Of a stretch of 36,905 nucleotides of DNA, positions 2,725 to 17,155 are shown piece by piece. Origin of the DNA: an uncultured Candidatus Saccharibacteria bacterium. Lineage in GTDB: Bacteria; Patescibacteriota; Minisyncoccia; UBA6257; UBA9933. Position numbers and translations under genes: made by a program. The notes below the pieces were generated by a model. The model saw only the letters and a program-made list of their open reading frames with translations, ran no database searches and had not been told where the DNA came from. Numbering within the stretch: position 1 is the first letter of the stretch; the number at the start of each line of letters is the position of its first letter. Location of the stretch: positions 1-36,905 of the forward strand of contig CAZYZO010000001.1 of assembly GCA_964651905.1 (NCBI GenBank), given 5' to 3'.

Positions 2725-2757
2725 ATAACCCGTCAGTTAGAATGGCGGGTTATTTTT
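2724..2757. terminator. hairpin between convergent genes (possible bidirectional terminator)
   Basis: ATAACCCG-13 nt-CGGGTTAT followed by TTTTTG. The right arm overlaps the radical SAM stop codon at 2750-2752. Confidence 0.45.
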
Positions 2758-4018
2758 GATAATTTTGATTTATGGGAAAAGATTCCCTATCCAATATATA
2801 CCTTAAGACGTCTTTAATAAATTGCCGAATCTCTTCACAACGATAACTTTTCGCGGTCAAGAAATTCTTCGACTCCATCACAGCTTTATTTGCGATACAG
2901 TCGCTGCAACAACTTACTGCTGCAAAACAATCAGAACATTCAGGAATATTCCGCACGCCGATTTTTTTAAGTTGCTGATAAACGTTGTTATCGAAAACAA
3001 AGGCGTTACGATTCGCATCGAATCTTCCATATATAAAATGCGAAGCGATTATATCTCGATTGTCTGTCATTCGATTACAACTTGTGCACCGTCCATCAGG
3101 CGTAATCATAAAATTTCGCCCCGCTACTCCGCAAAATTCAAAGCTTTTCTTTCCTAAATTAAGAACTGATGTCTTAAGTTTACAACCGAATTTTTCAGCA
3201 ATAGGCAATGCCTCTAAGAATTTCGTAAAAAATACCTTAGAGGACGGCATCGCGTATTTATTATTTCTCCCCCTTCCCATTGCAAAAAGCGGCTCATGTA
3301 ATTGTTTACAGTTAGGAAAGTTTTTGCCAAAAAAGTAAACTATATCTGGCAAATATTCAACACTATAGCTTGATATCGTCGAACGAAAAGCTACTTTTGT
3401 TGGTATCTGATTATAAAGCATTTTTGCAATCTCGAAAACCTGATCAAAACTATTGCTTCTATGAATGTCTTGAATCTCTTTAGGACCGTCAAACGAAATG
3501 CTGATGCCATCCATATTTCTCGCCAACCATTCGGCTTGTTTTAAACTCATACAACCATTAGTATTGATAGTTGCACGACTGCGACAACCAATTATCTCTG
3601 CTTTTTGACGTAGGTATCGCACCGCAGAAATTAGTATATCCCATGCTTGTGTTGGTTCTCCGCCAAACATATTGGCATAAATCAATCTCTTGCCAAATTT
3701 TTGAGCACAATCTGCAATATAATCAATAGTGGCAAAAATGACCTGTTCAGACATAAAAGTTTTCTTTTTCGGGCTTGCATTTTCGTAGCAATAAACACAA
3801 GCTAAATTACAATGATCGGTTAAAATTAAATTTGTCCCAAAGAATGTATAATCTGGAAGATTATCTTTTTGAAAAGCAAAATAAGGTTTATCACTCTCAA
3901 TAAAGTCAGTAATTTTCTCTGCTACTGTCGGGCTGACGCGATAAACCCTAGAAAGCGAAGGGACGAATACAATAACATTATCGCCATCTAATATCTTAAA
4001 AACCCTGTGCTGATACAT
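2750..4018 (-). CDS. radical SAM / SPASM-domain peptide maturase
   Basis: CNLACVYC (CX3CX2C) near residue 70. C-terminal SPASM-type cysteines: CGVAGRNFMITPDGRC, CSDCFAAVSCCSDC and a later RC. SD AAGGAGGG lies upstream of the ATG. Sits directly downstream of a Cys-rich small ORF. Confidence 0.9.
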   Translation of the reverse strand: MYQHRVFKILDGDNVIVFVPSLSRVYRVSPTVAEKITDFIESDKPYFAFQKDNLPDYTFFGTNLILTDHCNLACVYCYENASPKKKTFMSEQVIFATIDYIADCAQKFGKRLIYANMFGGEPTQAWDILISAVRYLRQKAEIIGCRSRATINTNGCMSLKQAEWLARNMDGISISFDGPKEIQDIHRSNSFDQVFEIAKMLYNQIPTKVAFRSTISSYSVEYLPDIVYFFGKNFPNCKQLHEPLFAMGRGRNNKYAMPSSKVFFTKFLEALPIAEKFGCKLKTSVLNLGKKSFEFCGVAGRNFMITPDGRCTSCNRMTDNRDIIASHFIYGRFDANRNAFVFDNNVYQQLKKIGVRNIPECSDCFAAVSCCSDCIANKAVMESKNFLTAKSYRCEEIRQFIKDVLRYILDRESFPINQNYQK

Positions 4019-4051
4019 GTTTTTACCCTCCTTTCAAGTTTTAAGGTTTGA

Positions 4052-4085
4052 TTCCGAAGGGACAACTAAAGTTGCCCCTTCGGAA
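4052..4085 (-). promoter_or_regulatory. intercistronic stem-loop between the precursor peptide and maturase genes
   Basis: TTCCGAAGGGACAAC-TAAA-GTTGCCCCTTCGGAA forms a 15-bp stem with one mismatch and a 4-nt loop. No strong U-tract follows on the minus strand. Confidence 0.6.
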
Positions 4086-4095
4086 ATATTTGATT

Positions 4096-4278
4096 TCATG
4101 CGCCGCTTGGACAAGTAACATCTGCGCAATCACCGCCGCAATCTCCATCACAGCCGTCAGTATCGCCACAGTCATCACTTCCACAGCCACCGATTGAATT
4201 AAAAACCGCGGCCTGATTAAAGCGACTATTTAGCTTGACGCTAGAAATCGCTATCTTCTCAAGTTCATTACTATCCAT
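4096..4278 (-). CDS. RiPP precursor peptide candidate (Cys/Asp/Gly-rich core, SCIFF/ranthipeptide-like)
   Basis: MDSNELEKIAISSVKLNSRFNQAAVFNSIGG|CGSDDCGDTDGCDGDCGGDCADVTCPSGA. AAGGAGGTGAAT precedes the ATG at 4278; the track's GTG start at 4284 overlaps the SD. The last 29 residues hold six Cys. Immediately 5' of the radical SAM/SPASM gene. Confidence 0.75.
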   Translation of the reverse strand: MDSNELEKIAISSVKLNSRFNQAAVFNSIGGCGSDDCGDTDGCDGDCGGDCADVTCPSGA

Positions 4279-4315
4279 ATTCACCTCCTTTTTTTCGGTT
4301 TTTTGTTAAAACTAC

Positions 4316-4633: not shown

Positions 4634-5290
4634 CTAAAACGACTTAGCAATTCTTACAAATTCTTTTACTTTCTCAATGTCTTTTCCGTTTCCATCGGGA
4701 AGATCTGTTTTAGTTTTAGAATCAACTCCTGCGGGCATAACTTCCTTAATGGCCGCCTCCACATTTTCCGGGCCAAGGCCACCGGCCAAGATCACCGGCA
4801 TACTAACAGAATTAACGATTTTTTTACTTATCGTCCAATTATGCGTTTCGCCAGTCGCTCCGATTTGAAAATCTCCTTTTTTGCGGCTATCTAAAATAAG
4901 AAAATCTGCAATTCCTTCATATTTTTTAGCTAACCCCACGCTTTTCTCGTCTATGACCGGAATAGTTCTCATAATTTTAATCTGAGGATATTTTTCTTTT
5001 ATTTTTTTAACTGAATCAGGTAATAAAGATTCCGTAGATATGCCAAGTTGTAAAATATCGGGGTTAACCTTTTCTACTAATTCCGAGATTCTCCTTAGAT
5101 CAGAAGAAAGCGTGAGAGCAACCTTAGTGGTTTCACTAGGAAGAGAGTTAAAAATCTCTTTTACTCTATCATCGTCTAAACCTCTAGGGTCAACTTCTTT
5201 TCCTACTAGCACGCCAATAAAATCTACTCCTACTTCTATGAGTTTTTTAGCTTCTTCCGGATTTTGAACTTCGTAAATTTGAACAATCAT
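4634..5290 (-). CDS. trpF: phosphoribosylanthranilate isomerase-like protein
   Basis: From MIVQIYEV...: GATGETHNW, PVILAGGLGPENV and PAGVDSKTKTD...GKDIEKVKEF match the TrpF (beta/alpha)8 C-terminal signatures. I trimmed the 38 N-terminal codons of the track ORF because they read through a tRNA-like noncoding fragment. Confidence 0.75.
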   Translation of the reverse strand: MIVQIYEVQNPEEAKKLIEVGVDFIGVLVGKEVDPRGLDDDRVKEIFNSLPSETTKVALTLSSDLRRISELVEKVNPDILQLGISTESLLPDSVKKIKEKYPQIKIMRTIPVIDEKSVGLAKKYEGIADFLILDSRKKGDFQIGATGETHNWTISKKIVNSVSMPVILAGGLGPENVEAAIKEVMPAGVDSKTKTDLPDGNGKDIEKVKEFVRIAKSF

Positions 5291-5297
5291 GGTTTTT

Positions 5298-5365
5298 TGC
5301 GGAGAGGGAGGGATTCGAACCACGTGGGTCGCCCTGTTGTCTCGGTAATATGGGTTGTCTCCGAT
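5298..5365 (-). repeat. repeat element copy L3: tRNA 3'-end-like fragment plus GTTGTCTCGGT motifs
   Basis: TGCGGAGAGGGAGGGATTCGAACC (5298-5321) matches the 3' end of tRNA-Ser (14257-14280) at 20/24 positions in the same orientation. GTTGTCTCGGT at 5335-5345 and GTTGTCTCCGAT at 5354-5365. No complete cloverleaf can be drawn. Confidence 0.45.
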
Positions 5366-5554
5366 AATAAATTGTCTTGACGGTGGCTGAACCGGTATTC
5401 GCATTAAAGGCCTTATCTTGTGGCCGTATTGATAAAATTATACGCCGTTTGAGGTTATTTTACAGGAAAATCTAGCCTCTTTTGAGATTCTGGTGTTTGC
5501 CCAAAAGGTCTACTAATCTTAAATTGTTTAATTTAGCTAAAAGCGTCATTCTTC

Positions 5555-5800
5555 GTGGCGGATTCCTCTACCAGCTTGCTTTCCTTGAGGTATGCAAACG
5601 ATGCAGTACTTGTTTTGAATTTTAAAAAGAATGGGCAACCAAATTATATTGGTGGTGCAACTTTCATAGAAATATTTAGGGCATCTGATTCAGACAAGAA
5701 AGTCTTTTTATATAATCCAATTTCAGAATCTAATTTTAAAGACGAATTGATTGGAATGAGTGTTGAAGTCATCAATGGTGATTTGACCAAAATTAAATAG
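5555..5800 (+). CDS. hypothetical protein, possibly a C-terminal gene fragment (N-deoxyribosyltransferase-like fold guessed)
   Basis: 81-aa ORF with a GTG start and no SD. ANDAVLVLN...NYIGGATFIEIFRA...KKVFLYNP loosely resembles the C-terminal half of nucleoside 2-deoxyribosyltransferase-like proteins. This is a weak call. Confidence 0.3.
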   Translation: MADSSTSLLSLRYANDAVLVLNFKKNGQPNYIGGATFIEIFRASDSDKKVFLYNPISESNFKDELIGMSVEVINGDLTKIK

Positions 5801-5840
5801 CTGATTGACAAAAAGTATCATTTTTATCAAAATTAATTTA

Positions 5841-6782
5841 ATGTTATTAGACACTTATAAAAAAATGTTCCTTATTCGGACAACTGAAGAACAAATAGCC
5901 GCTTATTACCTTAAGAATAAGATAATGAGCCTCGTTCATTTCTATATTGGTCAGGAAGCGATAGCTGTGGGTGTCTGCGATGCATTACATAAAGATGATC
6001 GTGTGATAGGCAATCATCGATCACACGGACACTATCTGGCCAAAGGAGGAGATCTTAAGAAGATGATCTGTGAATTGTTTGGAAAGGAATATGGTTCGTC
6101 GCATGGCAAGGGTGGATCAATGCACATGATCGATACATCGGTTAATTTCATTGGGTCGACCCCAATCCTCTCAAGTGCTGTACCACTTTCCTGTGGTAGC
6201 GCATTTGAACAAAAGTACCACAAGAGTGGTACAGCAACAGTCGTGTTCTTAGGTGATGGTGCGTTTGAGGAAGGAGGTGTCTACGAATCTATGAATCTAG
6301 CGGCCCTTTTTAAGCTGCCGTTACTCGTCGTTCTTGAAAATAATTTCCGGTCCATTAACACGCGCCTTTGGGAACGGCGATCTGCAGCCCATAATACTAA
6401 AAAGATAGTTACTGGATTTGGAGTACGATATATAAGAGCCGATGGGAATGATTATTTAGACGTGGCAGTAAAGGTTAGAGAGCTTATCACCGAAGTACGC
6501 GCAGGTAAACCTGCTCTCATTGAGTGTATGACCTACCGTCACATGGCACACAGTGGGCCAACCTTTGAGGAAGAAACTCGTGAAGAGGATACAGCGGAAC
6601 AGCGAAAGGAGAAAGATTCAGTAGTAAAGATGAGACGAGAAACTCTCGCTTCAGGAGTCTCCGAAGAGGAAATTACTGCTACGGAAAATGATATTAAGAA
6701 AACCGTTACCAATGCTATCGTGTTTGCTGAGAAGGCACCTTTTCCAAAGAAAGAAAGTTTATACACCAACCTCTATGTCTAA
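5841..6782 (+). CDS. TPP-dependent 2-oxoacid dehydrogenase/decarboxylase E1 component, alpha subunit
   Basis: Typical E1-alpha layout: FYIGQEAIAVGV, GNHRSHGHYLAKG, GKGGSMH, VVFLGDGAFEEGGVYESMNLAALFKLPLLVVLENN (TPP-binding GDG...N), YRHMAHSGP. I prefer the ATG at 5841 over the TTG at 5805. Confidence 0.85.
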   Translation: MLLDTYKKMFLIRTTEEQIAAYYLKNKIMSLVHFYIGQEAIAVGVCDALHKDDRVIGNHRSHGHYLAKGGDLKKMICELFGKEYGSSHGKGGSMHMIDTSVNFIGSTPILSSAVPLSCGSAFEQKYHKSGTATVVFLGDGAFEEGGVYESMNLAALFKLPLLVVLENNFRSINTRLWERRSAAHNTKKIVTGFGVRYIRADGNDYLDVAVKVRELITEVRAGKPALIECMTYRHMAHSGPTFEEETREEDTAEQRKEKDSVVKMRRETLASGVSEEEITATENDIKKTVTNAIVFAEKAPFPKKESLYTNLYV

Positions 6783-7815
6783 TAGGATTATCACATACAC
6801 TGAAGCAATTAAAGAAGCCACGGACCAAATAATGGAGGTGGATCAGGACGTTGTTGTTATGGGTCTAGAAGTCTCATATAAAAACGGTGCAGACGGAACA
6901 ACAGCCGGACTTAAGGAAAAATATCCCTGCCGGATAATTGAAACGCCACAATCAGAAAATGCTGTAACAGGAATGGCAGTCGGCGCAGCTATAACAGGCC
7001 TTCATCCTATTGTGCACCACGGTAGGGTTGAGTTCGCAATCTTTGCGGCTGACCAGATATTTACACAGGCGGCGAAGTGGAATTATATGTTCGGCGGTGG
7101 ACATTCGGTTCCTGTTGTATTCAGGATCAATATTGGTCGACAATGGGGCCAGGGCCCGCAGCACACACAAGCGTTCTATTCGCTCTTTGGCAACACGCTT
7201 GGTCTTAAAGTTGTGATTCCCTCTACTCCGCGTATGGCGAAGGGTTTACTTATCTCTGCAATCCGTGACAAAAATCCCGTAGTTATCTTGGAACCACGCT
7301 GGCTTTTCTCTCTAAGACAGGATGTGCCAACCGAACTTTATGATAAACCACTCAATAAAGCTGTTATAATGAAAAAGGGCGCGGATCTTACAATTGTTTC
7401 TTATGGGGACGGTTTGATTGCGGCATATGAAGCTTTAGAGTTGATCAGTGGTCATGTTAATGCAGAACTTATAGATCTTGTTTCCATAAATCCAATAGAT
7501 TACGGAACTGTTTTAAAATCAGTAAAAAAAACTGGCCGACTTATCACAATTGATACCACCAATCACGCCTTTAGTATTGGCTCGGATGTTATCGCGAATA
7601 TTGCGGAACAGCAGTTGCTACACTTGAAGAATGCTCCAGTCTCACTTTCCTGTCCAGACGTTCCAGTCCCCACCTCAACCATACTCACTGAATCTTACTA
7701 TCCAACAAAAGTGGATATCGCAAACGTTGCGTTATGTCTGATGGGTAAGCCAACTATCAAGCGTGACTTAACTTTTGAAGAATTACACCTTGCCCCGAAT
7801 TTAGTTATAAAATAG
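6775..7815 (+). CDS. TPP-dependent 2-oxoacid dehydrogenase/decarboxylase E1 component, beta subunit
   Basis: MSNRIITYTEAIKEATDQIM..., ETPQSENAVTGMAVGAAITGLHP, VVILEPRWLF and a transketolase C-terminal-like end. The ATG at 6775 overlaps the alpha stop by 8 nt (ATGTCTAA). The track's upstream extension lies inside the alpha gene. Confidence 0.85.
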   Translation: MSNRIITYTEAIKEATDQIMEVDQDVVVMGLEVSYKNGADGTTAGLKEKYPCRIIETPQSENAVTGMAVGAAITGLHPIVHHGRVEFAIFAADQIFTQAAKWNYMFGGGHSVPVVFRINIGRQWGQGPQHTQAFYSLFGNTLGLKVVIPSTPRMAKGLLISAIRDKNPVVILEPRWLFSLRQDVPTELYDKPLNKAVIMKKGADLTIVSYGDGLIAAYEALELISGHVNAELIDLVSINPIDYGTVLKSVKKTGRLITIDTTNHAFSIGSDVIANIAEQQLLHLKNAPVSLSCPDVPVPTSTILTESYYPTKVDIANVALCLMGKPTIKRDLTFEELHLAPNLVIK

Positions 7816-7826
7816 CGGTGCTATAA

Positions 7827-8029
7827 ATAAAGGTACTTGTTACTAGCGGGACAGAATTTATTTGTTTCTACATCTGCGAGATTTCCCCGAAAAATACTTC
7901 AGTTGGAAAACTTCCAAGGAAGTATCGGATTCTAATGGTGAATATTGGAATGATACTATATCAGGAGCCATTCTGTTTACGAATACACTTGGTGCTCAAG
8001 ATATTGCCAGATTATTTGCCGAAGAATAA
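7827..8029 (+). pseudogene. decayed remnant of an NAD-dependent epimerase/dehydratase (SDR) gene
   Basis: ATA-AAG-GTA... reads (I)KVLVTSGTEFICFYICE, which resembles the canonical MKVLVTGGTGFIGSHLCE with the start and all Gly-motif positions mutated. A different frame ends ...EKYFSWKTSKEVSDSNGEYW...AQDIARLFAEE*, resembling an SDR C-terminus. About 200 nt remain of roughly 950 nt expected. Confidence 0.45.
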
Positions 8030-8131
8030 ATGAACCTTGTAGAAAACTATCCAATAAAGAATATTTTACAAAAATAATTGTGGTAATGGACTGTAGACCA
8101 AATTAAAGGCTTATAGTATGTTGATGTATAT

Positions 8132-9700
8132 ATGGTTTATAATAATAAACAAAAAATTATAAGAAATAAAAATCTTCCCAAATCCATACGATCTGTAGTA
8201 CGTATGTATCCATCTAATCAGGTCAATAGATTATTTTATGGTGGACTACCCCACCTAGGTAACACACTTTTGAACTCTTGGAAATCTACTGAGATACAAG
8301 AAGCGGCTAAGACGTATGATGATTACAGTCTTTCCTCGAATCTTCTTATAAAAGGCTTTAAGGATCCTGTAGTGGATAAAGTAAGATTAGGAATTGGAAG
8401 CCCTGCACGTTTTAAGCCTTTTGGTAGGTGTATTAAGAGTATAAAATATGCCTTGCAAAATAGAATACTTTCTGACTATCAATTAGCCGCGGGATATAGT
8501 GAGGACAAGGTACCCATCATAAAATACTTTAAAATTTCTCATGATTTAGAAATTACTGAAAATAATATTATTTTTACCCACTCAGGTACACAGGCGTTTA
8601 CCTTTGTTATGGAAGCAATACTGGATTATGGGGATGTGGTCATTATGACAGCCCCAAATTATGGACTTTTCGCCTTTATTCCAGAGAGGATCGGGGGTGA
8701 AGTTAGACTTTTACCGCTTACAAGTCTTAATGATTGGAAAATTAACCCGAAAGAACTTAAGCAACTTATTTTTAATACAAATAATGAACTTAAGCGAGAT
8801 TATGATATAAATCGTGGGAAATATGTTTTTAGACGCTCTGATGTGCCACCAAGAGTTTCTGCTTTTCTTAATTTAAATCCGCACAACCCAACGGGTGTTG
8901 TGTACAGTAAAAAGGACATATCGTTGTTGGTAGAAATTTCTAATATTTGCAATGAGGCTGGTGTATTTATTGTCGATGATTTGGCTTATTTTGGTCTAGA
9001 ATTTGATAGAAATTCTACCGCACTACCCATTTGTAGCTTAAAGGGGTATTTTAATAATACGATAACACTATATTCTCTTTCTAAATCTTACGGGTTGGCT
9101 GGCTTAAGGTCAGGTATGATTATTGCTAATGAGGTGATTATTTCTCTGATAAGAGATAAAATATTTCAGAGTTTGGATTCATTGTCTTTATTACAGTCGG
9201 CCGCTATGAGTGCGGTTTTCTTAATTGAGGATAATGCTCTTATAGAAAGAGAGAGGTACTTTACCGATATCACCAGGAAATATTATGAAAGGTATGTCTT
9301 TGTGAAAGCTATTATTATAGGGATTGATAAAATTAACAAAGAAGAAAGAATACTGCTCAACAAGATTATTCAAAACAACAAACTTATTTTTAATATTAAA
9401 AAATCTATGAGCGGTATCAGAGATGTTAGCATAGCACTTGAGCCAGAGTCGGGATTTTTTATACTCTTAGATCTAAGTAAATTACTTGGAAAATCTTATA
9501 AAGAATTTAAAATAATTGATGATATAACTTTGTTAAAATTTTTGTATACATCAGGTAATATTAAATTATTGACTGGCAGAGCATTTTGTTGGCCTAATCA
9601 GAGCCAGCTTACCGCAAGGGTAACTATCGCATTTGACAAATATGAAGATTTATTGAAATCTTTTTTACGCCTCAAATTATCCATAGAATCATTAGTATGA
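8132..9700 (+). CDS. PLP-dependent aminotransferase, class I/II
   Basis: 522 aa. NLNPHNPTG and the Schiff-base lysine motif YSLSKSYGLAGLRSG. Unusually long N-terminal extension and C-terminal inserts. Confidence 0.85.
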   Translation: MVYNNKQKIIRNKNLPKSIRSVVRMYPSNQVNRLFYGGLPHLGNTLLNSWKSTEIQEAAKTYDDYSLSSNLLIKGFKDPVVDKVRLGIGSPARFKPFGRCIKSIKYALQNRILSDYQLAAGYSEDKVPIIKYFKISHDLEITENNIIFTHSGTQAFTFVMEAILDYGDVVIMTAPNYGLFAFIPERIGGEVRLLPLTSLNDWKINPKELKQLIFNTNNELKRDYDINRGKYVFRRSDVPPRVSAFLNLNPHNPTGVVYSKKDISLLVEISNICNEAGVFIVDDLAYFGLEFDRNSTALPICSLKGYFNNTITLYSLSKSYGLAGLRSGMIIANEVIISLIRDKIFQSLDSLSLLQSAAMSAVFLIEDNALIERERYFTDITRKYYERYVFVKAIIIGIDKINKEERILLNKIIQNNKLIFNIKKSMSGIRDVSIALEPESGFFILLDLSKLLGKSYKEFKIIDDITLLKFLYTSGNIKLLTGRAFCWPNQSQLTARVTIAFDKYEDLLKSFLRLKLSIESLV

Positions 9701-10581
9701 AAATATATATTGCCTCATCAGAAAAGTATGTAGGAAAAATCCAAGAAGATGTTTATATACGCGACACCTATAGAAATAAAGGATTTTTTTGTGAAATCGT
9801 TACTCTGAAAAATATCGTAAAGATCTCAAAACCCTTTGATGGGGTAATTTTAAAAAGCGTCTGGGGGTATTATTTACACTATCAAGAATTTCTAAGGCAA
9901 TTATCAATACTCAGAAAAAAGAATATTAAACTAATAAACGACTATAATTTTATTTTTTGGAATATTGATAAGTATAAATACTTGTACGAATTAAAGCATA
10001 TGAATACAATTCCCACGACACTTCTTAGTTTTAAAAGTATTAAGAAGGTATTTGAGATTAGAAATATAATATTACAAATAAATAAAACATTAAACACGGA
10101 TACGTTGGTTATTAAACCCTGTATTTCAGAAAGCGGTTACTTAACCTTTAAATACGATAAAACAAAAAATAATAAGGCTATTATTGCTTTACTGCAACAA
10201 AATAAACAACTTAATTTTATTGCACAGCCCTACCGACCGGATATCTTGTCTGGAGAGTTATCTGTGGTCATAATTAATGGCATCTCCTTGTATGGCATTA
10301 AGAGATTTCCTGGAATTTTTAGTGAAAAATTAGATCCGATGTATATAAGGTTTATTAGCTTGCCGGGTGTAATAAAAAAAGAAGTAGACATATTAAAAAT
10401 ATTTTTCTTAAAGAAGTTTGGCGTTTTCCCTAATATATGCAGGGTTGACTTCTTAAAGATTGATACTGGTTATGAAATTTTAGAGGTAGAGTTAATAGAT
10501 CCTGATTTATTCTTTAGATACATACCTGATAGTATGAGAGAGAAAGCAACTTCCATGATTTATAAATCATTTGTTAAATAA
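9697..10581 (+). CDS. ATP-grasp-like protein (RimK/glutathione synthetase-like)
   Basis: FWNIDKYKYLYELK...IPTT followed by LVIKPCISESGY and FIAQPY...GELSVVIING, which matches the small ATP-grasp layout. ATGA overlap with the aminotransferase stop. Confidence 0.6.
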   Translation: MKIYIASSEKYVGKIQEDVYIRDTYRNKGFFCEIVTLKNIVKISKPFDGVILKSVWGYYLHYQEFLRQLSILRKKNIKLINDYNFIFWNIDKYKYLYELKHMNTIPTTLLSFKSIKKVFEIRNIILQINKTLNTDTLVIKPCISESGYLTFKYDKTKNNKAIIALLQQNKQLNFIAQPYRPDILSGELSVVIINGISLYGIKRFPGIFSEKLDPMYIRFISLPGVIKKEVDILKIFFLKKFGVFPNICRVDFLKIDTGYEILEVELIDPDLFFRYIPDSMREKATSMIYKSFVK

Positions 10582-10598
10582 TTAATTTTTATTAATCC

Positions 10599-11051
10599 AT
10601 GCTTAGAAAAGGAGTTTCAGTGCTTATCATCAACAAAAAGAACGAGTTTCTTTTAGTTAATTTAGAATCTTTTGAAAATAAGTATTTTGCAATCCCTGGC
10701 GGTGGAGTTGAACAGGAAGAAACATTAAAAGATGCGGCGTATAGAGAGTTAGATGAAGAGTTGGGAATCAAAGAAAAACATCTTCAAATCGTAGGTCAAA
10801 GTGATATACCTGTCAGATTCAAATTTAAAGTAATTAAGATGAACCGCGACGGTATTGAATATGATGGATCAGAGCGATATTTTTTTGGATTTAGATTTAT
10901 TGGCGATGAAAAAATGATAATTCCAAACCCTGGAGAGGTACGATCTTATAAGTGGGTTACATATAGCGAGTTAAAAAATTATTTACTCTTTGATAACCAG
11001 CTACAGGAAACGTTAGAAAAAATTAAAGAAATATTTTCTAACTTGTCATGA
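10599..11051 (+). CDS. Nudix hydrolase
   Basis: Complete Nudix box GGVEQEETLKDAAYRELDEELGI (GX5EX7REUXEEXGU). Confidence 0.85.
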   Translation: MLRKGVSVLIINKKNEFLLVNLESFENKYFAIPGGGVEQEETLKDAAYRELDEELGIKEKHLQIVGQSDIPVRFKFKVIKMNRDGIEYDGSERYFFGFRFIGDEKMIIPNPGEVRSYKWVTYSELKNYLLFDNQLQETLEKIKEIFSNLS

Positions 11052-12277
11052 TTAATAAACCGACACTTCTTTTTGTAGAGGAGTATGAGAATACGCTTTC
11101 AAGGAGTGTAGTGTCAAACAAAACCATTAGCTTAGTCTTAATTAGATTTAAGCAAAACATGTTCTTTAGTCAAAATCATCTCGACACAACCTCTAATATT
11201 CTTTGTTTTGTTTTTGACAAAGCGGAGTCCATAGAACATGAAGTTGATGAGTTCAAAAGATTCTGTGCCAAAAGTGGAATTGTAGTTAATTATTTCTATA
11301 ATGACTCCGAATACAACCAGGAGGTGATTCAGAAATTTGCCTCACTACTTAAACTTCCCGGCGCGTTGAATGAGTATCAAGCTCGCTGTGTAAGAGATAA
11401 AGCAGTAATGAAAGATAAACTTCATAAACTTGGATACCAAACAATGTTTTATCAAGAACTGACTTCCATTGATGATGCACTGGAATTCGCCGAAAAACAT
11501 GGAGGTTTTCCTTTTATCGTTAAGTGGCGTAGAGGGCTCTCATCGAAGGAAGTATATAGGATTGAAAGCAGGGGTCAGTTAGAGGCCCTTCAACTCGATT
11601 ATTCTACAAGGCGATTCATCGCGGAAACGTATTGTCCATACTTGATATGGAGTTTTGATTCTCTAGTGCAGGATGGCAAGGTTGTGGGAACTTTTCTAAC
11701 GTGGCTTCCATACACCAATCTAAGCTTCGCCGAGAAAAAAGAGAAGTTTGCTCAAATCACTGTTGCAGAACATCCGAAGAATATTAGATTCGATGGAGGA
11801 AAAATAACTCAGAACATAGTTAGTGAACTCGACCTGAAAAATGGATATATAGAAATAGAGTTCTTCGTTGATCTTCACGGACAACCTATTATCTGCGAAT
11901 TTGCATGGCGAACTGCCGGGGAGCACATATTGTCAAATCAAAGTCTAGCCTTTGGAGTAGATGTCTGTTCTTTATTAGTCGACATTATGGTTGGAAGAAA
12001 AATCCAACCGCTTCCACTAAATGGTCGACAATGCGTCGGCGACATGTTTCTACCATTAACCAATGGCGTCGTCACTCAAATTTCTTCCTATAAGGACCTA
12101 AGTGATCTTGATGGAGTAATCAATGGCAACATTACATGTAAAGTAGGAGATGTTATCGAGTTAAAAAGACAATACACAAGTTGTGCTGGCTGGATCCAAA
12201 TTACTGGAAAAACCGCGGACGAAGTCTTGAACAGAATGTTAAAGGTATACGAGAAGTTTGAAATTATAATAGTCTAG
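11048..12277 (+). CDS. ATP-grasp carboxylate-amine ligase (L-amino-acid-ligase-like)
   Basis: 409 aa. DKAVMKDKLHKLGY, FPFIVKWRRGLSSKEVYRIES, AETYC..., GYIEIEFFVD and EFAWRTAGE fit an ATP-grasp fold with a pre-ATP-grasp N-domain. ATGA overlap with the Nudix stop. Confidence 0.7.
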   Translation: MINKPTLLFVEEYENTLSRSVVSNKTISLVLIRFKQNMFFSQNHLDTTSNILCFVFDKAESIEHEVDEFKRFCAKSGIVVNYFYNDSEYNQEVIQKFASLLKLPGALNEYQARCVRDKAVMKDKLHKLGYQTMFYQELTSIDDALEFAEKHGGFPFIVKWRRGLSSKEVYRIESRGQLEALQLDYSTRRFIAETYCPYLIWSFDSLVQDGKVVGTFLTWLPYTNLSFAEKKEKFAQITVAEHPKNIRFDGGKITQNIVSELDLKNGYIEIEFFVDLHGQPIICEFAWRTAGEHILSNQSLAFGVDVCSLLVDIMVGRKIQPLPLNGRQCVGDMFLPLTNGVVTQISSYKDLSDLDGVINGNITCKVGDVIELKRQYTSCAGWIQITGKTADEVLNRMLKVYEKFEIIIV

Positions 12278-12322
12278 TACATTATTAATAAACTCTAGAA
12301 AAATATAATAATAAGGCCAAGT

Positions 12323-13216
12323 ATGAAAAAATTTAATAAAATAGTCATTATTGACACGGTTAAGATTACCGAGGAAGCGAAAGAAAAAATTCAACATTAT
12401 TCAAATGAGCGTGTTATTTATCCTGAATTTGACACAAAAAATGAAACGGAAATTTACCAAAGAATTAATAATGCCGACGCAGCCCTGGGTAATTGGCATT
12501 CAACAATAAATACTTCAATTTTAAAACATACCCCGAATCTTAAATATATTGGGATTTGCGGAACAAGTTTAGCGAATATTAATCTAGAAGCGGTAAGAAG
12601 GCACAATATAGTTATCAAAAACGTTACTGACTACGGCGATAATGGCGTGGCTGAATATATTTTTGCTCAACTACTTAATCTCTTTAGAGGATTCGGTAAA
12701 CACAGGTGGAGAAATGAGCCTAGTGAGCTTAATTCAAAAACAATTGGAATTATTGGTCTAGGAGCAATAGGGCAACAAGTTGCTAGAACAGCTTTAGGGT
12801 TTAAAATGAAAGTTTTATATTACAGTAAATCCAGAAAAACAGAGTGGGAGGAGAAAGGAGTTCAATATTCAACTATTGATGATTTGCTAAAAAAAAGTGA
12901 TATCATATCTATACATGTTCCTAAAAATACTAAGATCATCGGAAAAAATGAACTAGAAAAAATCGGTAATGGTAAGATTATAATCGACACCTGCTTAGGA
13001 GATATTTATAAAGATATTAATGCTGTTCGACTATGGCTTGGAAATGAAAATAATTTTTTAATAAGAGATCATCAGCCTGAAATAAAAGAAAAACTCGGTG
13101 ATTTGGAAAGATTTATATATACAGAAAATGTGATATCTGGAATAACGACAGAAGCCAGAGAAAAGCTAAGTACAAAGGTTATAGATAACATTGAAGATTA
13201 TCTAAAAAATAATTAA
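12323..13216 (+). CDS. D-isomer-specific 2-hydroxyacid dehydrogenase, NAD-binding
   Basis: KTIGIIGLGAIGQQVAR (GxGxxG), SDIISIHVP and the overall length and architecture of the family. Confidence 0.8.
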   Translation: MKKFNKIVIIDTVKITEEAKEKIQHYSNERVIYPEFDTKNETEIYQRINNADAALGNWHSTINTSILKHTPNLKYIGICGTSLANINLEAVRRHNIVIKNVTDYGDNGVAEYIFAQLLNLFRGFGKHRWRNEPSELNSKTIGIIGLGAIGQQVARTALGFKMKVLYYSKSRKTEWEEKGVQYSTIDDLLKKSDIISIHVPKNTKIIGKNELEKIGNGKIIIDTCLGDIYKDINAVRLWLGNENNFLIRDHQPEIKEKLGDLERFIYTENVISGITTEAREKLSTKVIDNIEDYLKNN

Positions 13217-13240
13217 AGGTTTGACAATTTTTCTTAAGAA

Positions 13241-13276
13241 AACGCCCAAACAATAACAGTTTATTGTTTGGGCGTT
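13241..13276. terminator. bidirectional hairpin terminator between convergent genes
   Basis: AACGCCCAAACAATAA-CAGT-TTATTGTTTGGGCGTT, a perfect 16-bp stem. The right arm overlaps the stop codon of the minus-strand gene. Confidence 0.6.
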
Positions 13277-13724
13277 ATAACATGCGGAATACTCTAACAT
13301 CTTTTTCCGCTTCCTCTTTGTTTCTGGATCGATGGATGATATTTTTGTAATATATCACGTTGTCGATCATAAGTGGCTTTCGCGCACCGAATTTAAAGCG
13401 TATGCTTTCGGGAGCGCAATCAACAGGATCAATTTCTGTGCCCGCGATTTGAAGAAGTGTATTGACAGCATCTCTCCCAACCACAAGCCCCGCTTCAACG
13501 AATGCGTTTACAAAGGGTTTAAAAACTGAGTTCCTGTATCTTTCAGGTAGGTCAGAATAAATGGCTTTTAATGCCCAATGTGGCATAACAAGCCTCTTGA
13601 CCTCTGAGATGATTAGGCCACCACCCTCGATCATTGCTCTGGCTTCTTTGAGAAATACCAAACCATGAGGTTTGATAATGTAAAAACTAGTTTCCAAGGT
13701 ACAATTCTCTCTTTCTTTGCTCAT
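13275..13724 (-). CDS. nucleoside diphosphate kinase-like domain protein (divergent)
   Basis: From MSKERENCTLETSFYIIKPHG... (GGAGGAAGTC before the ATG at 13724). FYIIKPHG resembles the NDK FxIIKPDG motif. NIIHRSRNKEEAEKDVRVF aligns with the NDK NxxHGSDSxxxAxxEIxxF, and the catalytic His is kept. Confidence 0.55.
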   Translation of the reverse strand: MSKERENCTLETSFYIIKPHGLVFLKEARAMIEGGGLIISEVKRLVMPHWALKAIYSDLPERYRNSVFKPFVNAFVEAGLVVGRDAVNTLLQIAGTEIDPVDCAPESIRFKFGARKPLMIDNVIYYKNIIHRSRNKEEAEKDVRVFRML

Positions 13725-13899
13725 GACTTCCTCCAATATTAAATTTTCAAATTTTAAAAACAATAAGCCTCATAAACGCTTACCTCTAATAAGAAGCCTA
13801 GAATATCTTGATATTTCTGTCAAGCTCAAAAAATTGGTGAATTTTACCTCTAAATGTAATAAATCTCCACAAAACCCTTGCAAACAAAGGGGGAAATTA

Positions 13900-14200
13900 T
13901 AAAGTCTAGATTCTTTTCAAGGTCTTTTAACGCGGATGGGGCGTTGGCTTCAATAGATTTTTTATCAAGAATAAAAACGGGCGCCACAAAGCATTCTGTG
14001 GGTCTTTTTTTTGCTTCTTTATTTCTAATTCAGTGTGGCTTTTTTAAAAAAAATGCGTTTAAGGCTTCTAGGATGGCGCTTTTGCCAATGCCGTTATCCC
14101 CCTAGATAGCCAACAAGTAGCCCTGATTCAAAGGAGTGGGCGGGTATGAATTTAGTATCCTGATAGCATTTAAAATTTTTAAGATATATACCGGCAAGTA
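13900..14200 (-). pseudogene. remnant of a P-loop ATPase (AAA15/OLD/RecF-like N-terminus), frameshifted and truncated
   Basis: The minus strand reads ...NFKCYQDTKFIPAHSFESGLLVGYLG, then a frameshift in a G5 run, then DNGIGKSAILEALNAFF (Walker A GxNGxGKSxxLEAL). Stops follow in all frames. Only about 0.3 kb is left. Confidence 0.5.
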
Positions 14201-14258
14201 TTTTTTATTGTGGCAGAGGACACAGCCTTCGGGTCGCTCCGATACTTAGTTGTCAATG

Positions 14259-14345
14259 CGGAGGCGGGAGGATTCGAACCTCCGATACCATTTCTGGTAT
14301 AACGGTTTTCAAGACCGTCCCATTCAGCCACTCTGGCACGCCTCC
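14259..14345 (-). tRNA. tRNA-Ser (anticodon UGA), class II with long variable arm
   Basis: GGAGGCG acceptor, anticodon loop CTTGAAA, variable arm TATACCAGAAATGGTATC, T-arm GGAGGTTCGAATCCTCC, CGCCTCC + G. CCA is not encoded. Confidence 0.9.
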
Positions 14346-14348
14346 ATG

Positions 14349-14421
14349 TGGACCGTAGCGGATTCGAACCGCTGACCTCCACATTGCAAATGTGGCGCTC
14401 TACCAACTAAGCTAACGGCCC
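14349..14421 (-). tRNA. tRNA-Ala (anticodon UGC)
   Basis: GGGCCGT/ACGGTCC acceptor with G3:U70, anticodon loop TTTGCAA, T-arm AGCGGTTCGAATCCGCT, discriminator A. Confidence 0.9.
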
Positions 14422-14473
14422 AAACTAGGAATTAATATACCAAAAATTTTTCTATTTCGCCAACCTTGAGAGA

Positions 14474-14887
14474 TTAAATTTTTCCGTCTTCAATTAGAAT
14501 TTTATTTATTTTTTCTACAACTAAATCCAGGTTAGTTTCTTTTCTTAAATAATCGAAAGCACCGGATTCCTGAACAAATTTTCGATTCATATTGATTATT
14601 TCTTCTCGCGAATCGCCGCTGTCTGCTAACATAATTACTCTTATTCCTCTTGTCCTATCATTGTCTTTGATTTTAAAAAGAGTCTCAATGCCGTCCATTT
14701 CCGGCATCATCATATCAAGCAAAACAACATCGGGTTTTGCATTCGTTAAAACAGCGAGAGCTTCTTTGCCATTTGAGGCCTCAATAATATTAAAATTAGC
14801 GGCTTCCAGTTTTGTTTTTAAGATATTCCGAAAATCTGTTTCGTCGTCTACCATTAATATTAAAAATTTTTTTATTTCCTCAGCCAT
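14474..14887 (-). CDS. stand-alone response regulator receiver protein (CheY-like)
   Basis: 137 aa. LILMVDDE, VVLLDMMMPEMDG. No output domain. Confidence 0.85.
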   Translation of the reverse strand: MAEEIKKFLILMVDDETDFRNILKTKLEAANFNIIEASNGKEALAVLTNAKPDVVLLDMMMPEMDGIETLFKIKDNDRTRGIRVIMLADSGDSREEIINMNRKFVQESGAFDYLRKETNLDLVVEKINKILIEDGKI

Positions 14888-14969
14888 ATTTTAATTTTAA
14901 TATTCAAAGATATTTTGTCAAAACTAAACCCCTTGCCTTCAGATTCATGAATAAGCATTATCATTAAAT

Positions 14970-15605
14970 TTAAATCTTTGGGACACTCAATTTTACATTA
15001 CTGATAATTTTTTCTATATTAGGGAAAAATCGGCTAAAAATTTTATCTATCTTCTGTATTTTGTCTTCTTCTGGTAATTTCTGCATCATAGCTAATTCAG
15101 GAAATATTTTTGATAAAATTAAGTCAACTAATCTTTCTTTTTGCCAGTGACCTATCTTGAATTTAACAATGAACGGTTCGATTGAAAGATGTATCAATTC
15201 ATGAATAATAGTTTTAATAATATTCTTATCTTTGCTAATGCCAATATTAATAACAATATTATTGGGGCAACGATAGCTACCGCCAACGCCATACTTAGTC
15301 AAAAATACGAAATAGATTTTCTGCGGGTTCAAAGACATCTCTAATAAAGATTTTGATAACCTCTCATCTACATTACTCCATTCATTTCTTATTTTTAAAA
15401 TAATTCCTTCATAATCTTCCTTTTTAAACTCTTTGGCTATATTTTTCCGTACATATTCTTCAGTTGTCGTTTCCTTATTTTTTAAAGACACGTTTGCGGG
15501 TAAAACAATTTTATAATTATTCTTTCTAAACCACTCTATATCTTTTAGAGTGTTTAAAACACGCTGAACCTCAAAATCAAATGAATATTTTATTTCTATC
15601 TCCAT
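14970..15605 (-). CDS. hypothetical protein with HExxH motif
   Basis: 211-aa ORF with IIHELIHLS. This is the third HExxH protein of unknown family in the window. Confidence 0.6.
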   Translation of the reverse strand: MEIEIKYSFDFEVQRVLNTLKDIEWFRKNNYKIVLPANVSLKNKETTTEEYVRKNIAKEFKKEDYEGIILKIRNEWSNVDERLSKSLLEMSLNPQKIYFVFLTKYGVGGSYRCPNNIVINIGISKDKNIIKTIIHELIHLSIEPFIVKFKIGHWQKERLVDLILSKIFPELAMMQKLPEEDKIQKIDKIFSRFFPNIEKIISNVKLSVPKI

Positions 15606-15719
15606 AATTTTATTTTGATAAAATAACGCAAACCGGATTTTTTGGTTTCTTCTTTTGCATATAGAAATTATACTATTAAAATCAGAAAAGGTATCTGCCT
15701 CTGAATTCTCTAAGCGTTA

Positions 15720-16310
15720 TTACCTCCGAGCAATTCCCTGAATAATGTGCCAGAATTTTACTTCGCCGGTTGCTCCTGCCTTTTTCCGTTTTTCTTCTGA
15801 TATCTCAATAAAATCCATCTTCTTTAATAAATTTTTTAATTCTTCTATCGTCCAAAAGGACATTTCTTGGCGAGTTTTTGCCCAATCGTCTTCTGGACCA
15901 AAAACTGAAAAGACAAAAATTCCATCTTTAGTTAGACCTTCCTGGATTTTTAACAAAAGTTTAGAAGATTTTTTCTTGTTTAGAAAAGGTAAACTATTCC
16001 AAGCAATAATCAATTGATAATTATCTGGGGCGATGTTGTAGTCGGCGACATCTTCTTTAATAACTGCAACAGGCAAGCTATTACATAGCTTTTTAGCTTG
16101 ATTAATACTTGCTTCATCTAAATCAACTGCCTCTACCTGAAATCCATTTTCCGCTAAATATTTAGCGTCAACACCAGCGCCACAACCAAGATCTAAGGAT
16201 CTACCTTTTGAAGTTCCTAATATTTTTACTGCTTCTACTAAAAAACCAACGGGTTGACGTTTTTGAGTTGCTTTAACAAATTTATTCCACTCCCAATCTG
16301 ACATATACAA
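15720..16310 (-). CDS. class I SAM-dependent methyltransferase
   Basis: Motif I LDLGCGAGVDAKYLAENG, followed by VEAVDLD. About 195 aa, a TehB-like size. Confidence 0.85.
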   Translation of the reverse strand: MYMSDWEWNKFVKATQKRQPVGFLVEAVKILGTSKGRSLDLGCGAGVDAKYLAENGFQVEAVDLDEASINQAKKLCNSLPVAVIKEDVADYNIAPDNYQLIIAWNSLPFLNKKKSSKLLLKIQEGLTKDGIFVFSVFGPEDDWAKTRQEMSFWTIEELKNLLKKMDFIEISEEKRKKAGATGEVKFWHIIQGIARR

Positions 16311-16330
16311 ATAATAACAATTTCTTTAAA

Positions 16331-16368
16331 AATAAAAAGGCGATCAGACAAATTAAGCTTGATCGCCT
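16331..16368 (-). terminator. rho-independent terminator after the small peptide ORF
   Basis: The minus strand reads AGGCGATCA-13 nt-TGATCGCCT followed by TTTTTATTTTT. Confidence 0.65.
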
Positions 16369-16382
16369 CTTACTGGAACTAA

Positions 16383-16576
16383 CTAATCGCTTTCTGGACA
16401 AGCGCTACAATCCATTCCGCCGTTTTCTTGACTACCTGCTTGATCAGATGTGCAACCGGTGCTATGAGAGTGTTCTTCGACATTACTGGCTCCTAGAATG
16501 CCTTGGACACTGTAGCGGGCTAGATACTTTACCTCTTGAGTCCAAAAGTTGAACTCATTTAACTGACTTTTTTCAT
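16383..16576 (-). CDS. candidate Cys-containing small peptide ORF, readable only with a -1 shift / extra A in an A6 run
   Basis: AAGGAGGTGATAAAA-ATG at 16576. Frame 0 gives MKKVS*. Shifting by -1 in ATGAAAAAAG gives MKKSQLNEFNFWTQEVKYLARYSVQGILGASNVEEHSHSTGCTSDQAGSQENGGMDCSACPESD* (64 aa) ending at 16383. The ORF track missed it. Confidence 0.35.
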
Positions 16577-16627
16577 TTTTATCACCTCCTTTCTTGATTA
16601 AGTTTTTCAGAGAACAATTCGGTTAAA

Positions 16628-17155
16628 TTACTTATGTTCTTCAATCTTGCAACTGGTTTTGCTAGACTTTATTTTTGGAACGAAAAGTAATTTAGCTGAA
16701 ATTTTGTTTTTGGTCATGTTTATTTCATAAACCGAACCTGGTGGACAATGCCAGTATTCAATATCTTTTAATGGCCTCTCAGAAATTTTATTAAGCAAAA
16801 CCCTCAATGGATCTCTGTGGGTAATATATAATCGGTATGGCTTGCTACTTCTTAACACATATGACATTCGACGGGCTATATCAATGGTATGTTCCCCTAC
16901 TTCCCATTCGTTCAAATATTCTTTAATCACTATAGCTTTATCGTTATTAATGATTTTTTTTATTATTGAAGCGGTCTCGATACATCTTTCCATCGGAGAC
17001 GAAAATATGAAGTCTATATTGTAGTCACTTAAAAACCTTCCAGTTGATTCAGCTTCCTTCTGGCCTTCCCTGTTTAAATTAAAACCCGGCAATCTTCTGT
17101 ATGTAATCTTATTTGGATTGTGAACTGTAGCGTGCCTGCAGATTAAAATACGCAT
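16628..17155 (-). CDS. histidine phosphatase family protein (phosphoglycerate mutase-like)
   Basis: MRILICRHATVHN (RHG-type motif with Ala) and a later ITHRDPLRVL. I prefer the ATG at 17155. Confidence 0.75.
   Translation of the reverse strand: MRILICRHATVHNPNKITYRRLPGFNLNREGQKEAESTGRFLSDYNIDFIFSSPMERCIETASIIKKIINNDKAIVIKEYLNEWEVGEHTIDIARRMSYVLRSSKPYRLYITHRDPLRVLLNKISERPLKDIEYWHCPPGSVYEINMTKNKISAKLLFVPKIKSSKTSCKIEEHK

Follow-up and report, generated by a model that had tools for sequence, protein, structure and literature searches.

A probably horizontally exchanged Patescibacteria gene cassette encoding two ATP-grasp proteins, a Nudix hydrolase and an NDK-fold protein: a possible route to peptide-like small molecules

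Background

Sets of ATP-grasp and aminotransferase-type genes are known from several bacterial pathways. The ligase BacD of bacilysin biosynthesis pairs with the aminotransferase BacF, and the rhizocticin pathway has the genes RizA and RizB. In the capsule glucuronamide module Cj1436-Cj1438 of Campylobacter jejuni, a class I/II-fold pyridoxal 5'-phosphate (PLP) enzyme makes an amine and an ATP-grasp amidoligase joins it to a carboxylate, with phosphorylated intermediates and a phosphatase, and peptidyl-nucleoside pathways combine kinases, 2-oxoglutarate (2OG) oxygenases, a PLP aminotransferase, and an ATP-grasp ligase. In the puromycin pathway, nucleotide intermediates are the substrates of the Nudix hydrolase Pur7 and of an aminotransferase (PMC11641026). 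Here we describe a compact gene cluster on contig CAZYZO010000001.1, within a stretch of 36,905 nt that was analysed as a whole and is called the window below. Its core unit consists of a PLP aminotransferase (AT), a first ATP-grasp protein (AG1), a Nudix hydrolase, a second ATP-grasp protein (AG2), and a protein with the fold of nucleoside diphosphate kinase (NDK), while the alpha and beta subunits of a thiamine pyrophosphate (TPP)-type E1 enzyme and a protein of the 2-hydroxyacid dehydrogenase (2-Hacid_dh) fold are a clade-specific add-on (Table 1). We consider it about an even chance (roughly 50%) that this region represents the form taken in one clade by a self-contained Patescibacteria cassette for small-molecule biosynthesis, which is exchanged horizontally and uses neither the ribosome nor a nonribosomal peptide synthetase.

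Patescibacteria have tiny genomes and are generally regarded as almost without biosynthetic capacity, and the cassette bears on what they make to live on, or fight, their hosts. If its product is a bioactive amino-acid or nucleotide conjugate, the five genes (~5.5 kb) would offer a clonable entry point to episymbiont-host chemistry and would bring to light new ATP-grasp, Nudix, and NDK-fold enzymology. No paper in the literature searched combines Patescibacteria, ATP-grasp, and Nudix, and related searches gave analogies only; this agrees with an earlier interpretation of the window made from its letters (hereafter the sequence-only reading), which did not recognise the gene combination as a described pathway and whose broad idea, an undescribed small-molecule or decoration pathway with a nucleotide-linked step, is upheld here.

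Comparison with described pathways

The cassette shares with the bacilysin and rhizocticin systems a stand-alone ATP-grasp enzyme of the L-amino-acid ligase (LAL) fold, placed in a small operon with a PLP enzyme of the aminotransferase fold. It differs from them in that AG2 is only ~15% identical to characterised LALs, theirs included, that the loci examined contain no prephenate-modifying Bac genes and no phosphoenolpyruvate (PEP) mutase, and that its hosts are Patescibacteria; moreover, those systems are without a second, DcsG-like ATP-grasp, a Nudix hydrolase, and an NDK-fold protein, all three of which the cassette has. DcsG itself is the best structural match of AG1, and the Pfam domain DcsG_N is detected in AG1 orthologues, but no arginase-type, O-ureidoserine synthase, or racemase gene appears in the domain annotations of the loci. 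Because AG1 scores 51.8 bits on the DcsG model (NF058666) against a cut-off of 360, is 17-18% identical to DcsG (6jil), and lacks these dcs-type partners, its substrate likely differs from that of DcsG.

The resemblance to Cj1436-Cj1438 lies in the PLP plus ATP-grasp logic and is drawn by description rather than by sequence, whereas the cassette has no glycosyltransferase or uronic-acid enzymes and contains two ATP-grasps of other subfamilies together with Nudix and NDK. With the nucleoside antibiotics (puromycin/cystocin, nikkomycin/polyoxin) it likewise shares logic only, as the same kinds of accessory genes surround the cassette, but the Patescibacteria core is without ATP dehydrogenase, enolpyruvyl transferase, and the octosyl-acid radical S-adenosylmethionine (SAM) enzyme. 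A puromycin-like pathway was rejected: Pur6 is not an ATP-grasp, and therefore only the Nudix/aminotransferase logic carries over. We also rejected a graspetide-type ribosomally synthesized and post-translationally modified peptide (RiPP), since the core genes overlap or lie 17-45 nt apart, with no room for a precursor, and AG1 matches DcsG over PsnB; Nudix is absent from a paper on the graspetides of candidate-phyla-radiation bacteria, which mentions aminotransferases only for a different ATP-grasp branch. Overall, the kinship of the cassette is with ATP-grasp/LAL-based peptide-like biosynthesis, and it is unusual in its setting (Patescibacteria, with a cousin on Firmicutes mobile elements) and in its obligatory Nudix and NDK-fold partners.

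Results and discussion

Conservation and distribution of the core unit

Genes of the window were read from an open reading frame (ORF) list and domain scans (Pfam, NCBIfam), and were compared with ~45 related loci through tblastn searches with every window protein and clustering of all ORFs of the loci. The order AT-AG1-Nudix-AG2 was identical in every Patescibacteria locus (~30 loci, with differing flanks). The whole eight-gene block, including the NDK-like gene, occurred in the same order in L002/L003, L007, L008, and L011, and was rearranged yet adjacent in L029 (AG2, 2-Hacid_dh, E1 alpha, E1 beta); the four-gene core was found in ~25 further Patescibacteria loci. The E1 alpha, E1 beta, and 2-Hacid_dh-fold genes were confined to the closest clade of the window (AG2 at least 81% identical), where they co-occur wherever the contig reaches far enough, and the E1 pair was present in seven loci in all, the window counted. 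Genes outside positions 5841-13724 were not common to other related loci. The sequence-only reading had treated the seven same-strand genes as one pathway; rather than being scattered over unrelated contexts, their homologues co-occur in a conserved order in related loci with unshared flanks, so that the genes do belong together, but the functional unit is the four-gene core plus the NDK-fold protein rather than the seven.

A scan of one genome for each of 185,579 species recovered 31 loci, 29 in Patescibacteria-type metagenome-assembled genomes (MAGs) and two in Firmicutes. AG2 formed 113 homologue clusters, most without a source name and the named ones nearly all from Patescibacteria MAGs, and AG1 formed 107, all from metagenome assemblies, the few named being "hypothetical protein"; named sources of either were Vogelbacteria, Zambryskibacteria, Paceibacterota, and Parcubacteria MAGs or plain "hypothetical protein". 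Homologues of both ligases were met almost solely in the cassette context. A phage-borne cassette was rejected, as no relative was found among IMG/VR viral contigs, and a PADLOC scan for anti-phage defence systems was negative, returning a generic Nudix model and one insignificant match only.

Core enzymes

AT is unusually long, with a conserved N-terminal extension and inserts (one of ~25 aa). Its PLP lysine (SLSKSYGLAGLRSG), NPTG, and D..Y align with solved aminotransferases, and against 4my5, 1dju, and 2x5d the NPTG, D..Y, and SKS..aGlRsG motifs are conserved; the best NCBIfam matches, the arginine-modifying PLP enzymes GntC and VioD, fall far below their cut-offs. The N-terminal motif is kept in all orthologues, and AT is present in every cassette. 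These motifs identify AT as a predicted fold-type-I PLP enzyme, for which the sequence leaves a choice between transamination and another PLP reaction.

The two proteins proposed earlier to be ATP-grasp ligases were borne out as ATP-grasp proteins by their predicted folds. AG1 matches GSH-S_ATP with 28.8 bits, above the Pfam cut-off for the glutathione-synthetase ATP-grasp, and its AlphaFold2 model (pLDDT 94) has DcsG (6jil) as the top Foldseek match (E 5e-18, TM 0.78), followed by RimK, GshB, LysX/ArgX, and Ddl, with PsnB in 25th place; the model thus predicts a DcsG-type ATP-grasp fold, but AG1 is no DcsG orthologue. AG2 passes the LAL_C2 (PF18603) cut-off (32.7 vs 29.4 bits). The top Foldseek matches of its AlphaFold2 model (pLDDT 93) are RizA (4wd3, E 5e-27), BL00235 (3vot), and BacD/YwfE, which make up the first six with TM scores of 0.75-0.79, and AG2 is accordingly a predicted LAL by structure.

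The Nudix hydrolase carries the canonical box GX5EX7REUXEEXGU (motif GGGVEQEETLKDAAYRELDEELGI in the translation), and its nearest solved relatives, RppH, Ap4A hydrolase, DIPP, and GDP-mannose hydrolase, are all weak matches. It is fused to four different partners: to AG2 in P0068, to a second AT paralogue in L006, L036-L040, and L045, to a 2OG oxygenase in L027 and L034, and to a methyltransferase in L033 (3596-4633). Because the Nudix domain of the Firmicutes fusions (those with AT) is only marginally similar to the Patescibacteria Nudix, the association seems to have arisen more than once by independent recruitment.

The fifth member, the NDK-like gene, reaches 44.8 bits on PF00334 (cut-off 27) and 36.2 bits on the NCBIfam ndk model (NF001908; cut-off 155). 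Aligned with solved NDKs, its profile keeps the catalytic-site NxxH.S (NiiHrS aligns with NviHaS of 2cwk, and IKP with IKP), which points to an NDK fold with the catalytic His, yet not to a housekeeping-level Ndk. In 17 non-redundant loci a gene of this family adjoins the cassette, in most cases following AG2 in convergent orientation and in one case upstream of AT; it is replaced in 13 other loci by a second family, f5 (235 aa, no Pfam match). The two are almost mutually exclusive; L029 has f5 on a contig that is cut where the NDK-like gene would lie. An hhalign probability of 35% and one tblastn cross-hit between the families suggest, weakly, that f5 is itself an NDK-fold protein, and it has no sequence match in the PDB. 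One or other NDK-fold gene adjoins the core in every Patescibacteria locus with enough flank. The nucleotide-linked step at which the sequence-only reading had hinted is thus strengthened, the Nudix hydrolase being always present, with its four fusion partners, and an NDK-like or f5 gene adjacent wherever a Patescibacteria locus has enough flank.

Proposed pathway and its standing

We hypothesize that the product is a di- or tri-peptide-like conjugate, as would follow from the AT, AG1, and AG2 steps. AT would start from a 2-oxo or hydroxylated precursor and make, or re-functionalise, an alpha-amino acid; AG1 would activate a carboxylate as an acyl phosphate and join it to a nitrogen nucleophile, forming an intermolecular amide or closing a DcsG-type ring, a chemistry that we infer from the matched fold; and AG2, if the structural prediction holds, would add a further amino acid. 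The target of the Nudix and NDK-fold proteins may be a partner or intermediate that contains a diphosphate, either linked to a nucleoside di- or triphosphate or pyrophosphorylated, and their synteny and fusions are consistent with a role in releasing the conjugate from a nucleotide carrier or in setting its phosphorylation state and hence its toxicity. In the clade of the window, E1 alpha/beta probably supplies or trims a 2-oxoacid building block, and the 2-Hacid_dh-fold protein probably does likewise, possibly by C=N or another atypical reduction. The accessory role would fall, in other lineages, to hydroxylases, methyltransferases, and small-molecule kinases. As the accessory genes vary by lineage, the pattern is typical of secondary-metabolite diversification.

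Several points weigh against this proposal. All family assignments of the five core proteins lie far below equivalog cut-offs. The roles given to the Nudix and NDK-fold proteins are deduced from gene order and fusion, yet NDK is a housekeeping enzyme too, and neighbouring genes may become fused by chance. Among the loci compared, no transporter or regulator accompanies the cassette consistently, and the resistance-type neighbours occur in few loci each, some of them perhaps by chance. The very high sequence conservation may reflect an essential primary function instead, and a distant variant described below speaks for a sugar scaffold, which is missing from the Patescibacteria core.

A bolder and more tentative form of the proposal, to which we give well under even odds, is that Patescibacteria and the mobile elements of gut Firmicutes share a hitherto unrecognised, ribosome-independent pathway to an aminoacyl- or peptidyl-nucleotide or a pyrophosphorylated peptide-like antimetabolite, in which a dedicated NDK-fold protein and the Nudix hydrolase would switch the product between charged (active or toxic) and discharged forms, and lineage-specific kinases, hydroxylases, and methyltransferases would diversify it. 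Should this hold, these episymbionts would have their first widespread and characteristic family of small-molecule gene clusters, and with it a candidate means of interacting with their hosts.

A distant variant and the case for glycan decoration

Relatives of AG2 at 41-47% identity occur in a fixed nine-gene arrangement (L006, L036-L040, L045) that comprises a sugar-1-phosphate nucleotidylyltransferase, the Nudix::AT fusion, a PIG-L (BshB1-like) deacetylase, AT, AG1, AG2, a B12 radical-SAM enzyme, a SPASM radical-SAM enzyme, and an M24 peptidase. A family 2 glycosyltransferase (GT2) is also found in L006 and L036. The nucleotidylyltransferase best matches a GlmU-type model (81 bits; MurU 54 bits), and on the DcsG model the Firmicutes-type AG1 reaches 115.7 bits. 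The block is present on many gut metagenome contigs, two of the loci (L036, L037) are Firmicutes MAGs, and 81 blocks of the assembly collection contain the variant AG1 protein. In L038 the block (5123-16708) forms the cargo of a mobilizable element and is enclosed by a MobA/MobL relaxase, a primase-like gene, an IS66 element, and a serine recombinase. P-methyltransferase-like radical-SAM matches in the variant suggested a phosphonate pathway, which was rejected for want of a PEP mutase in any locus seen. More remote DcsG_N proteins from large genomes (L041-L043, gene 10001-10867) are paired with an M28/M20 peptidase and are without AT, Nudix, or LAL partners; they constitute a different, also uncharacterised, two-gene module, and since the remote proteins pair only with this peptidase, the AT-AG1-AG2(+Nudix) combination is specific.

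The variant is what speaks most directly for envelope or surface-glycan decoration, the second option of the sequence-only reading, in which the ligases would attach amino acids to a nucleotide-carried amino sugar or uronic acid, the Nudix hydrolase would cleave an NDP-sugar, and NDK would supply the NTP. Here the AT-AG1-AG2 trio is embedded with the nucleotidylyltransferase, the BshB1-like deacetylase, and GT2; in Patescibacteria, a GH20 hexosaminidase is inserted in L025 and left as a relic in L007, S66 LD-carboxypeptidase genes lie near four loci, and the Nudix hydrolase is weakly similar to GDP-mannose mannosyl hydrolase. However, the annotated Patescibacteria loci contain no glycosyltransferase, sugar epimerase/dehydratase, nucleotidyltransferase, or flippase in or beside the core, AG2 is closest to dipeptide ligases that act on free amino acids, and the neighbouring kinases of the APH family match homoserine-kinase and antibiotic-kinase models but no sugar-kinase model. 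The same kinase result led us to reject a peptidoglycan-recycling (AmgK/MurU/MupP/LdcA) reading of the accessory genes, which we keep only as part of glycan decoration. The nucleotide-sugar context favoured by the sequence-only reading therefore stands for the distant Firmicutes-type variant and one GH20 insertion and not for the Patescibacteria core, and the remnant of a short-chain dehydrogenase/reductase (SDR) epimerase that it cited for such a context is unsupported (see below). We regard glycan decoration as unlikely for the Patescibacteria cassette.

Mobility, mosaicism, and the case for a primary function

In a Patescibacteria-specific primary or cofactor route, the ligases would make, for example, a thiol akin to glutathione, an amide akin to pantothenate or CoA, or, by a non-orthologous route, peptidoglycan dipeptides of the D-Ala-D-Ala or L-Ala-D-Glu type, with Nudix and NDK as nucleotide housekeeping partners. 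Unusual enzyme replacements are common in organisms with reduced genomes, AG1 passes the glutathione-synthetase cut-off and resembles GshB and Ddl, and some sources label AG2 D-Ala-D-Ala-ligase-like. AG2 is also strongly conserved: over three genome pairs, it is 77-88% identical across species whose leucyl-tRNA synthetase (LeuRS) is 56-65% identical (79.6% vs 64.8% between the window and L014, and 83% vs 60% between L014 and L015). Because AG2 is more conserved than LeuRS, either recent transfer or unusually strong constraint is implied.

The distribution and make-up of the cassette speak against a primary route. The cassette is patchy (31 loci in the species scan), its flanks are non-syntenic, and its tailoring genes vary. 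At its edges lie mobile-element genes, namely an rve integrase in L007 and, in L002, a serine recombinase next to a defence island, and the related Firmicutes cassette sits on a mobilizable element. L007 is a mosaic relative to the window, with AT 90%, AG2 88%, and E1 beta 94% identical but AG1 57% and Nudix 55%. Between AG1 and Nudix of L007, a short ORF (4837-5031) joins fragments of GH20 and of a 401-aa gene without assigned function, both intact in L025, and the N-terminus of its Nudix protein (5452-5520) resembles the oxygenase::Nudix junction of L034. These mosaic identities and relics indicate module exchange between cassette types. The cassette is thus patchy, mosaic, and horizontally exchanged, and the one dehydrogenase-fold protein lacks the catalytic triad needed for a pantoate- or lactate-type step, so that a primary route appears quite improbable. 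The window has a pair of tRNA genes, tRNA-Ser(TGA) and tRNA-Ala(TGC), ~500 bp beyond the NDK-like gene, at the same edge as the L007 integrase and the L002 serine recombinase.

It is very hard to believe that there is no common pathway and that housekeeping genes (pyruvate dehydrogenase (PDH) E1, an aspartate-type AT, GshB/RimK-like, MutT-like, and PurK-like proteins, lactate dehydrogenase, and Ndk) are merely adjacent, or that E1 serves acetoin or pyruvate catabolism: each protein alone does match a large housekeeping superfamily, and the E1 pair has a GC content of 43%, compared with 29-33% in AT, AG1, and Nudix and 35% over the window as a whole, but chance co-location is contradicted by the same order in ~30 genomes with unrelated flanks, by translational coupling, and by the gene fusions, the AG1 and AG2 homologues are nearly restricted to the cassette, the E1 pair has no E2/E3 beside it in the window or L002, and scores lie far below housekeeping equivalog cut-offs.

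Clade-specific accessory genes

The E1 subunits have the full E1 domain set, a TPP motif (GDG-26-NN, readable in the E1 alpha translation), and PDH E1 subunits as their best models. They differ from PDH and acetoin E1 in scoring below the equivalog cut-offs (E1 alpha 286.6 bits, cut-off 393.85; E1 beta 256 bits, cut-off 321) and in being always coupled to the cassette and to the 2-Hacid_dh-fold protein. E1 beta is 84-94% identical to its orthologues in L002, L007, L008, L011, and L029 and always accompanies E1 alpha. An acetoin-type operon complete with E2/E3 had been named by the sequence-only reading as the competing identification; no E2/E3 gene lies beside the cassette in the window (~5 kb each side), in L002 (within 10 kb), or in the annotated part of the L008 flank, the remaining E1-carrying loci being annotated for domains in part only.

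The 2-Hacid_dh-fold protein was previously taken for a D-2-hydroxyacid dehydrogenase. Its fold agrees with this (PF02826 and PF00389, with at least 60 PDB homologues at E <= 1e-10 among the matches listed), and it keeps the dinucleotide-binding Rossmann domain; however, when aligned with glyoxylate reductase 5aov it has Leu/Gln/Asn in place of the catalytic Arg/Glu/His. The triad is absent from all 11 family members (the window and ten others, e.g., L002 11294-12187), whose substitutions agree except for some variation of the Gln and Asn. Where the canonical His would stand they read YTEN or a variant of it, without a His in any member, and all 11 share DTCLG and FLIRDH. Because the triad is lost while these two motifs are conserved, the protein is under selection but is not a canonical 2-hydroxyacid dehydrogenase, and the motif pattern suggests a relocated or new active site. 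FLIRDH sits on the strand that normally bears the catalytic Glu. With the triad gone, a plain 2-oxoacid/2-hydroxyacid redox step is doubtful; of the proposal that a 2-oxoacid is handled by the TPP enzyme, the dehydrogenase, and transamination, the E1 and AT families are upheld and the plain dehydrogenase step is not. The best PDB match is 6p2i, presumably the acyclic imino-acid reductase Bsp5 (Guo et al., JACS 2019, cited in PMC11876095), and nothing here is built on this match. With its conserved RDH motif, the triad-less protein is a candidate for new reductase chemistry.

The spacer between the E1 pair and the core had been read as a decayed SDR epimerase, a reading for which we found no support. 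Its three translated frames contain a short GxGxxG-like string only and no Pfam match even at E <= 10, it matches no Rfam family, and no relative has an intact gene there; its DNA is similar only to the shorter, non-coding spacer of L007, the window having ~120 nt extra.

Variable neighbours

Other lineages carry different genes in or beside the core. They include an inserted or adjacent SAM methyltransferase (L002), a PI3/4-kinase-like protein of the SCO1664 family (L012-L015), and APH/homoserine-kinase-like kinases directly upstream of AT (L023, L030, L033) or after NDK (L022), as well as CPT/Gar-like and AAA_33 P-loop kinases, a PhyH dioxygenase, the GH20 hexosaminidase, GrpB, extra Nudix, S66 LD-carboxypeptidase, HAD, MFS, and ABC-F proteins. 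The window has, 2.4 kb beyond the cassette on its downstream side, a gene for a TehB-like SAM methyltransferase that is 28% identical to the methyltransferase half of the L033 fusion; it may be a detached tailoring gene. A HisKA_7TM sensor histidine kinase adjoins the cassette in eight loci (e.g., L004 5355-6968, L008 15147-16784, L011 3068-4876), the kinases being 27-49% identical among themselves, and the window has response-regulator genes nearby.

Layout of the window

The gene families assigned by the sequence-only reading were confirmed by domain scans and structure matches, as was, from ORFs, domains, and spacing, its description of seven tightly packed genes on one strand (Table 1). 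The overlaps it gave, 8 nt between E1 alpha and E1 beta (ATGTCTAA) and ATGA at AT/AG1 and Nudix/AG2, are present in the sequence as stated. The right end of the operon is marked by a hairpin of -23 kcal/mol (z = -4.9; none of 200 shuffles folded as well). Counts of promoter and terminator patterns in the region were not above those of shuffled sequence. A riboswitch or leader RNA before the core was rejected, as Rfam at gathering thresholds gave tRNAs only and the spacers that precede AT in the loci are short and differ from one another. The window also contains a LeuRS gene and six tRNA genes and is therefore taken to be chromosomal.

Table 1 Features of the cassette and its surroundings in the window
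Feature	Position	Strand	Details
Radical-SAM/SPASM enzyme	2750-4018	-	
62-aa ORF	4096-4284	-	adjoins radical-SAM/SPASM gene
TrpF-like phosphoribosylanthranilate isomerase homologue	4634-5404	-	102 bits, below cut-offs
81-aa ORF	5555-5800	+	no family match
E1 alpha	5841-6782	+	313 aa; PF00676, E 2e-61; clade-specific accessory
E1 beta	6775-7815	+	346 aa; Transket_pyr (PF02779) and Transketolase_C (PF02780)
Spacer between E1 pair and core	7816-8131		316 nt; sole sizeable gap in the operon
Class I/II PLP aminotransferase (AT), core gene 1	8132-9700	+	522 aa; PF00155, E 4.5e-30
ATP-grasp 1 (AG1), core gene 2	9697-10581	+	294 aa; GSH-S_ATP, DcsG/GshB type
Nudix hydrolase, core gene 3	10599-11051	+	150 aa; PF00293, E 5.6e-21, 75.4 bits
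ATP-grasp 2 (AG2), core gene 4	11048-12277	+	409 aa; LAL_C2 (PF18603)
2-Hacid_dh-fold protein	12323-13216	+	297 aa; PF02826 and PF00389; clade-specific accessory
Perfect 16-bp hairpin	13241-13276		between the convergent 2-Hacid_dh-fold and NDK-like genes
Divergent NDK-fold protein, core gene 5	13275-13724	-	~149 aa from ATG at 13724; convergent with the operon
tRNA-Ser(TGA) and tRNA-Ala(TGC)	14258-14421	-	
Response-regulator gene	14474-14887		one of those near the cassette
TehB-like SAM methyltransferase	15720-16310	-	
LeuRS	18127-20526		

Directly before E1 alpha are a lone TrpF-like gene and the 81-aa ORF, neither of which was found near any related cassette. Further upstream, the best NCBIfam match of the radical-SAM/SPASM enzyme is a PapB-family ranthipeptide maturase (90 bits, below cut-off), and the C-terminal half of the adjoining 62-aa ORF consists of Cys/Asp/Gly repeats (GGCGSDDCGDTDGCDGDCGGDCADVTC). 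From these features, the pair (2750-4284) looks like a ranthipeptide/SCIFF-type RiPP precursor with its maturase in a Patescibacteria genome.

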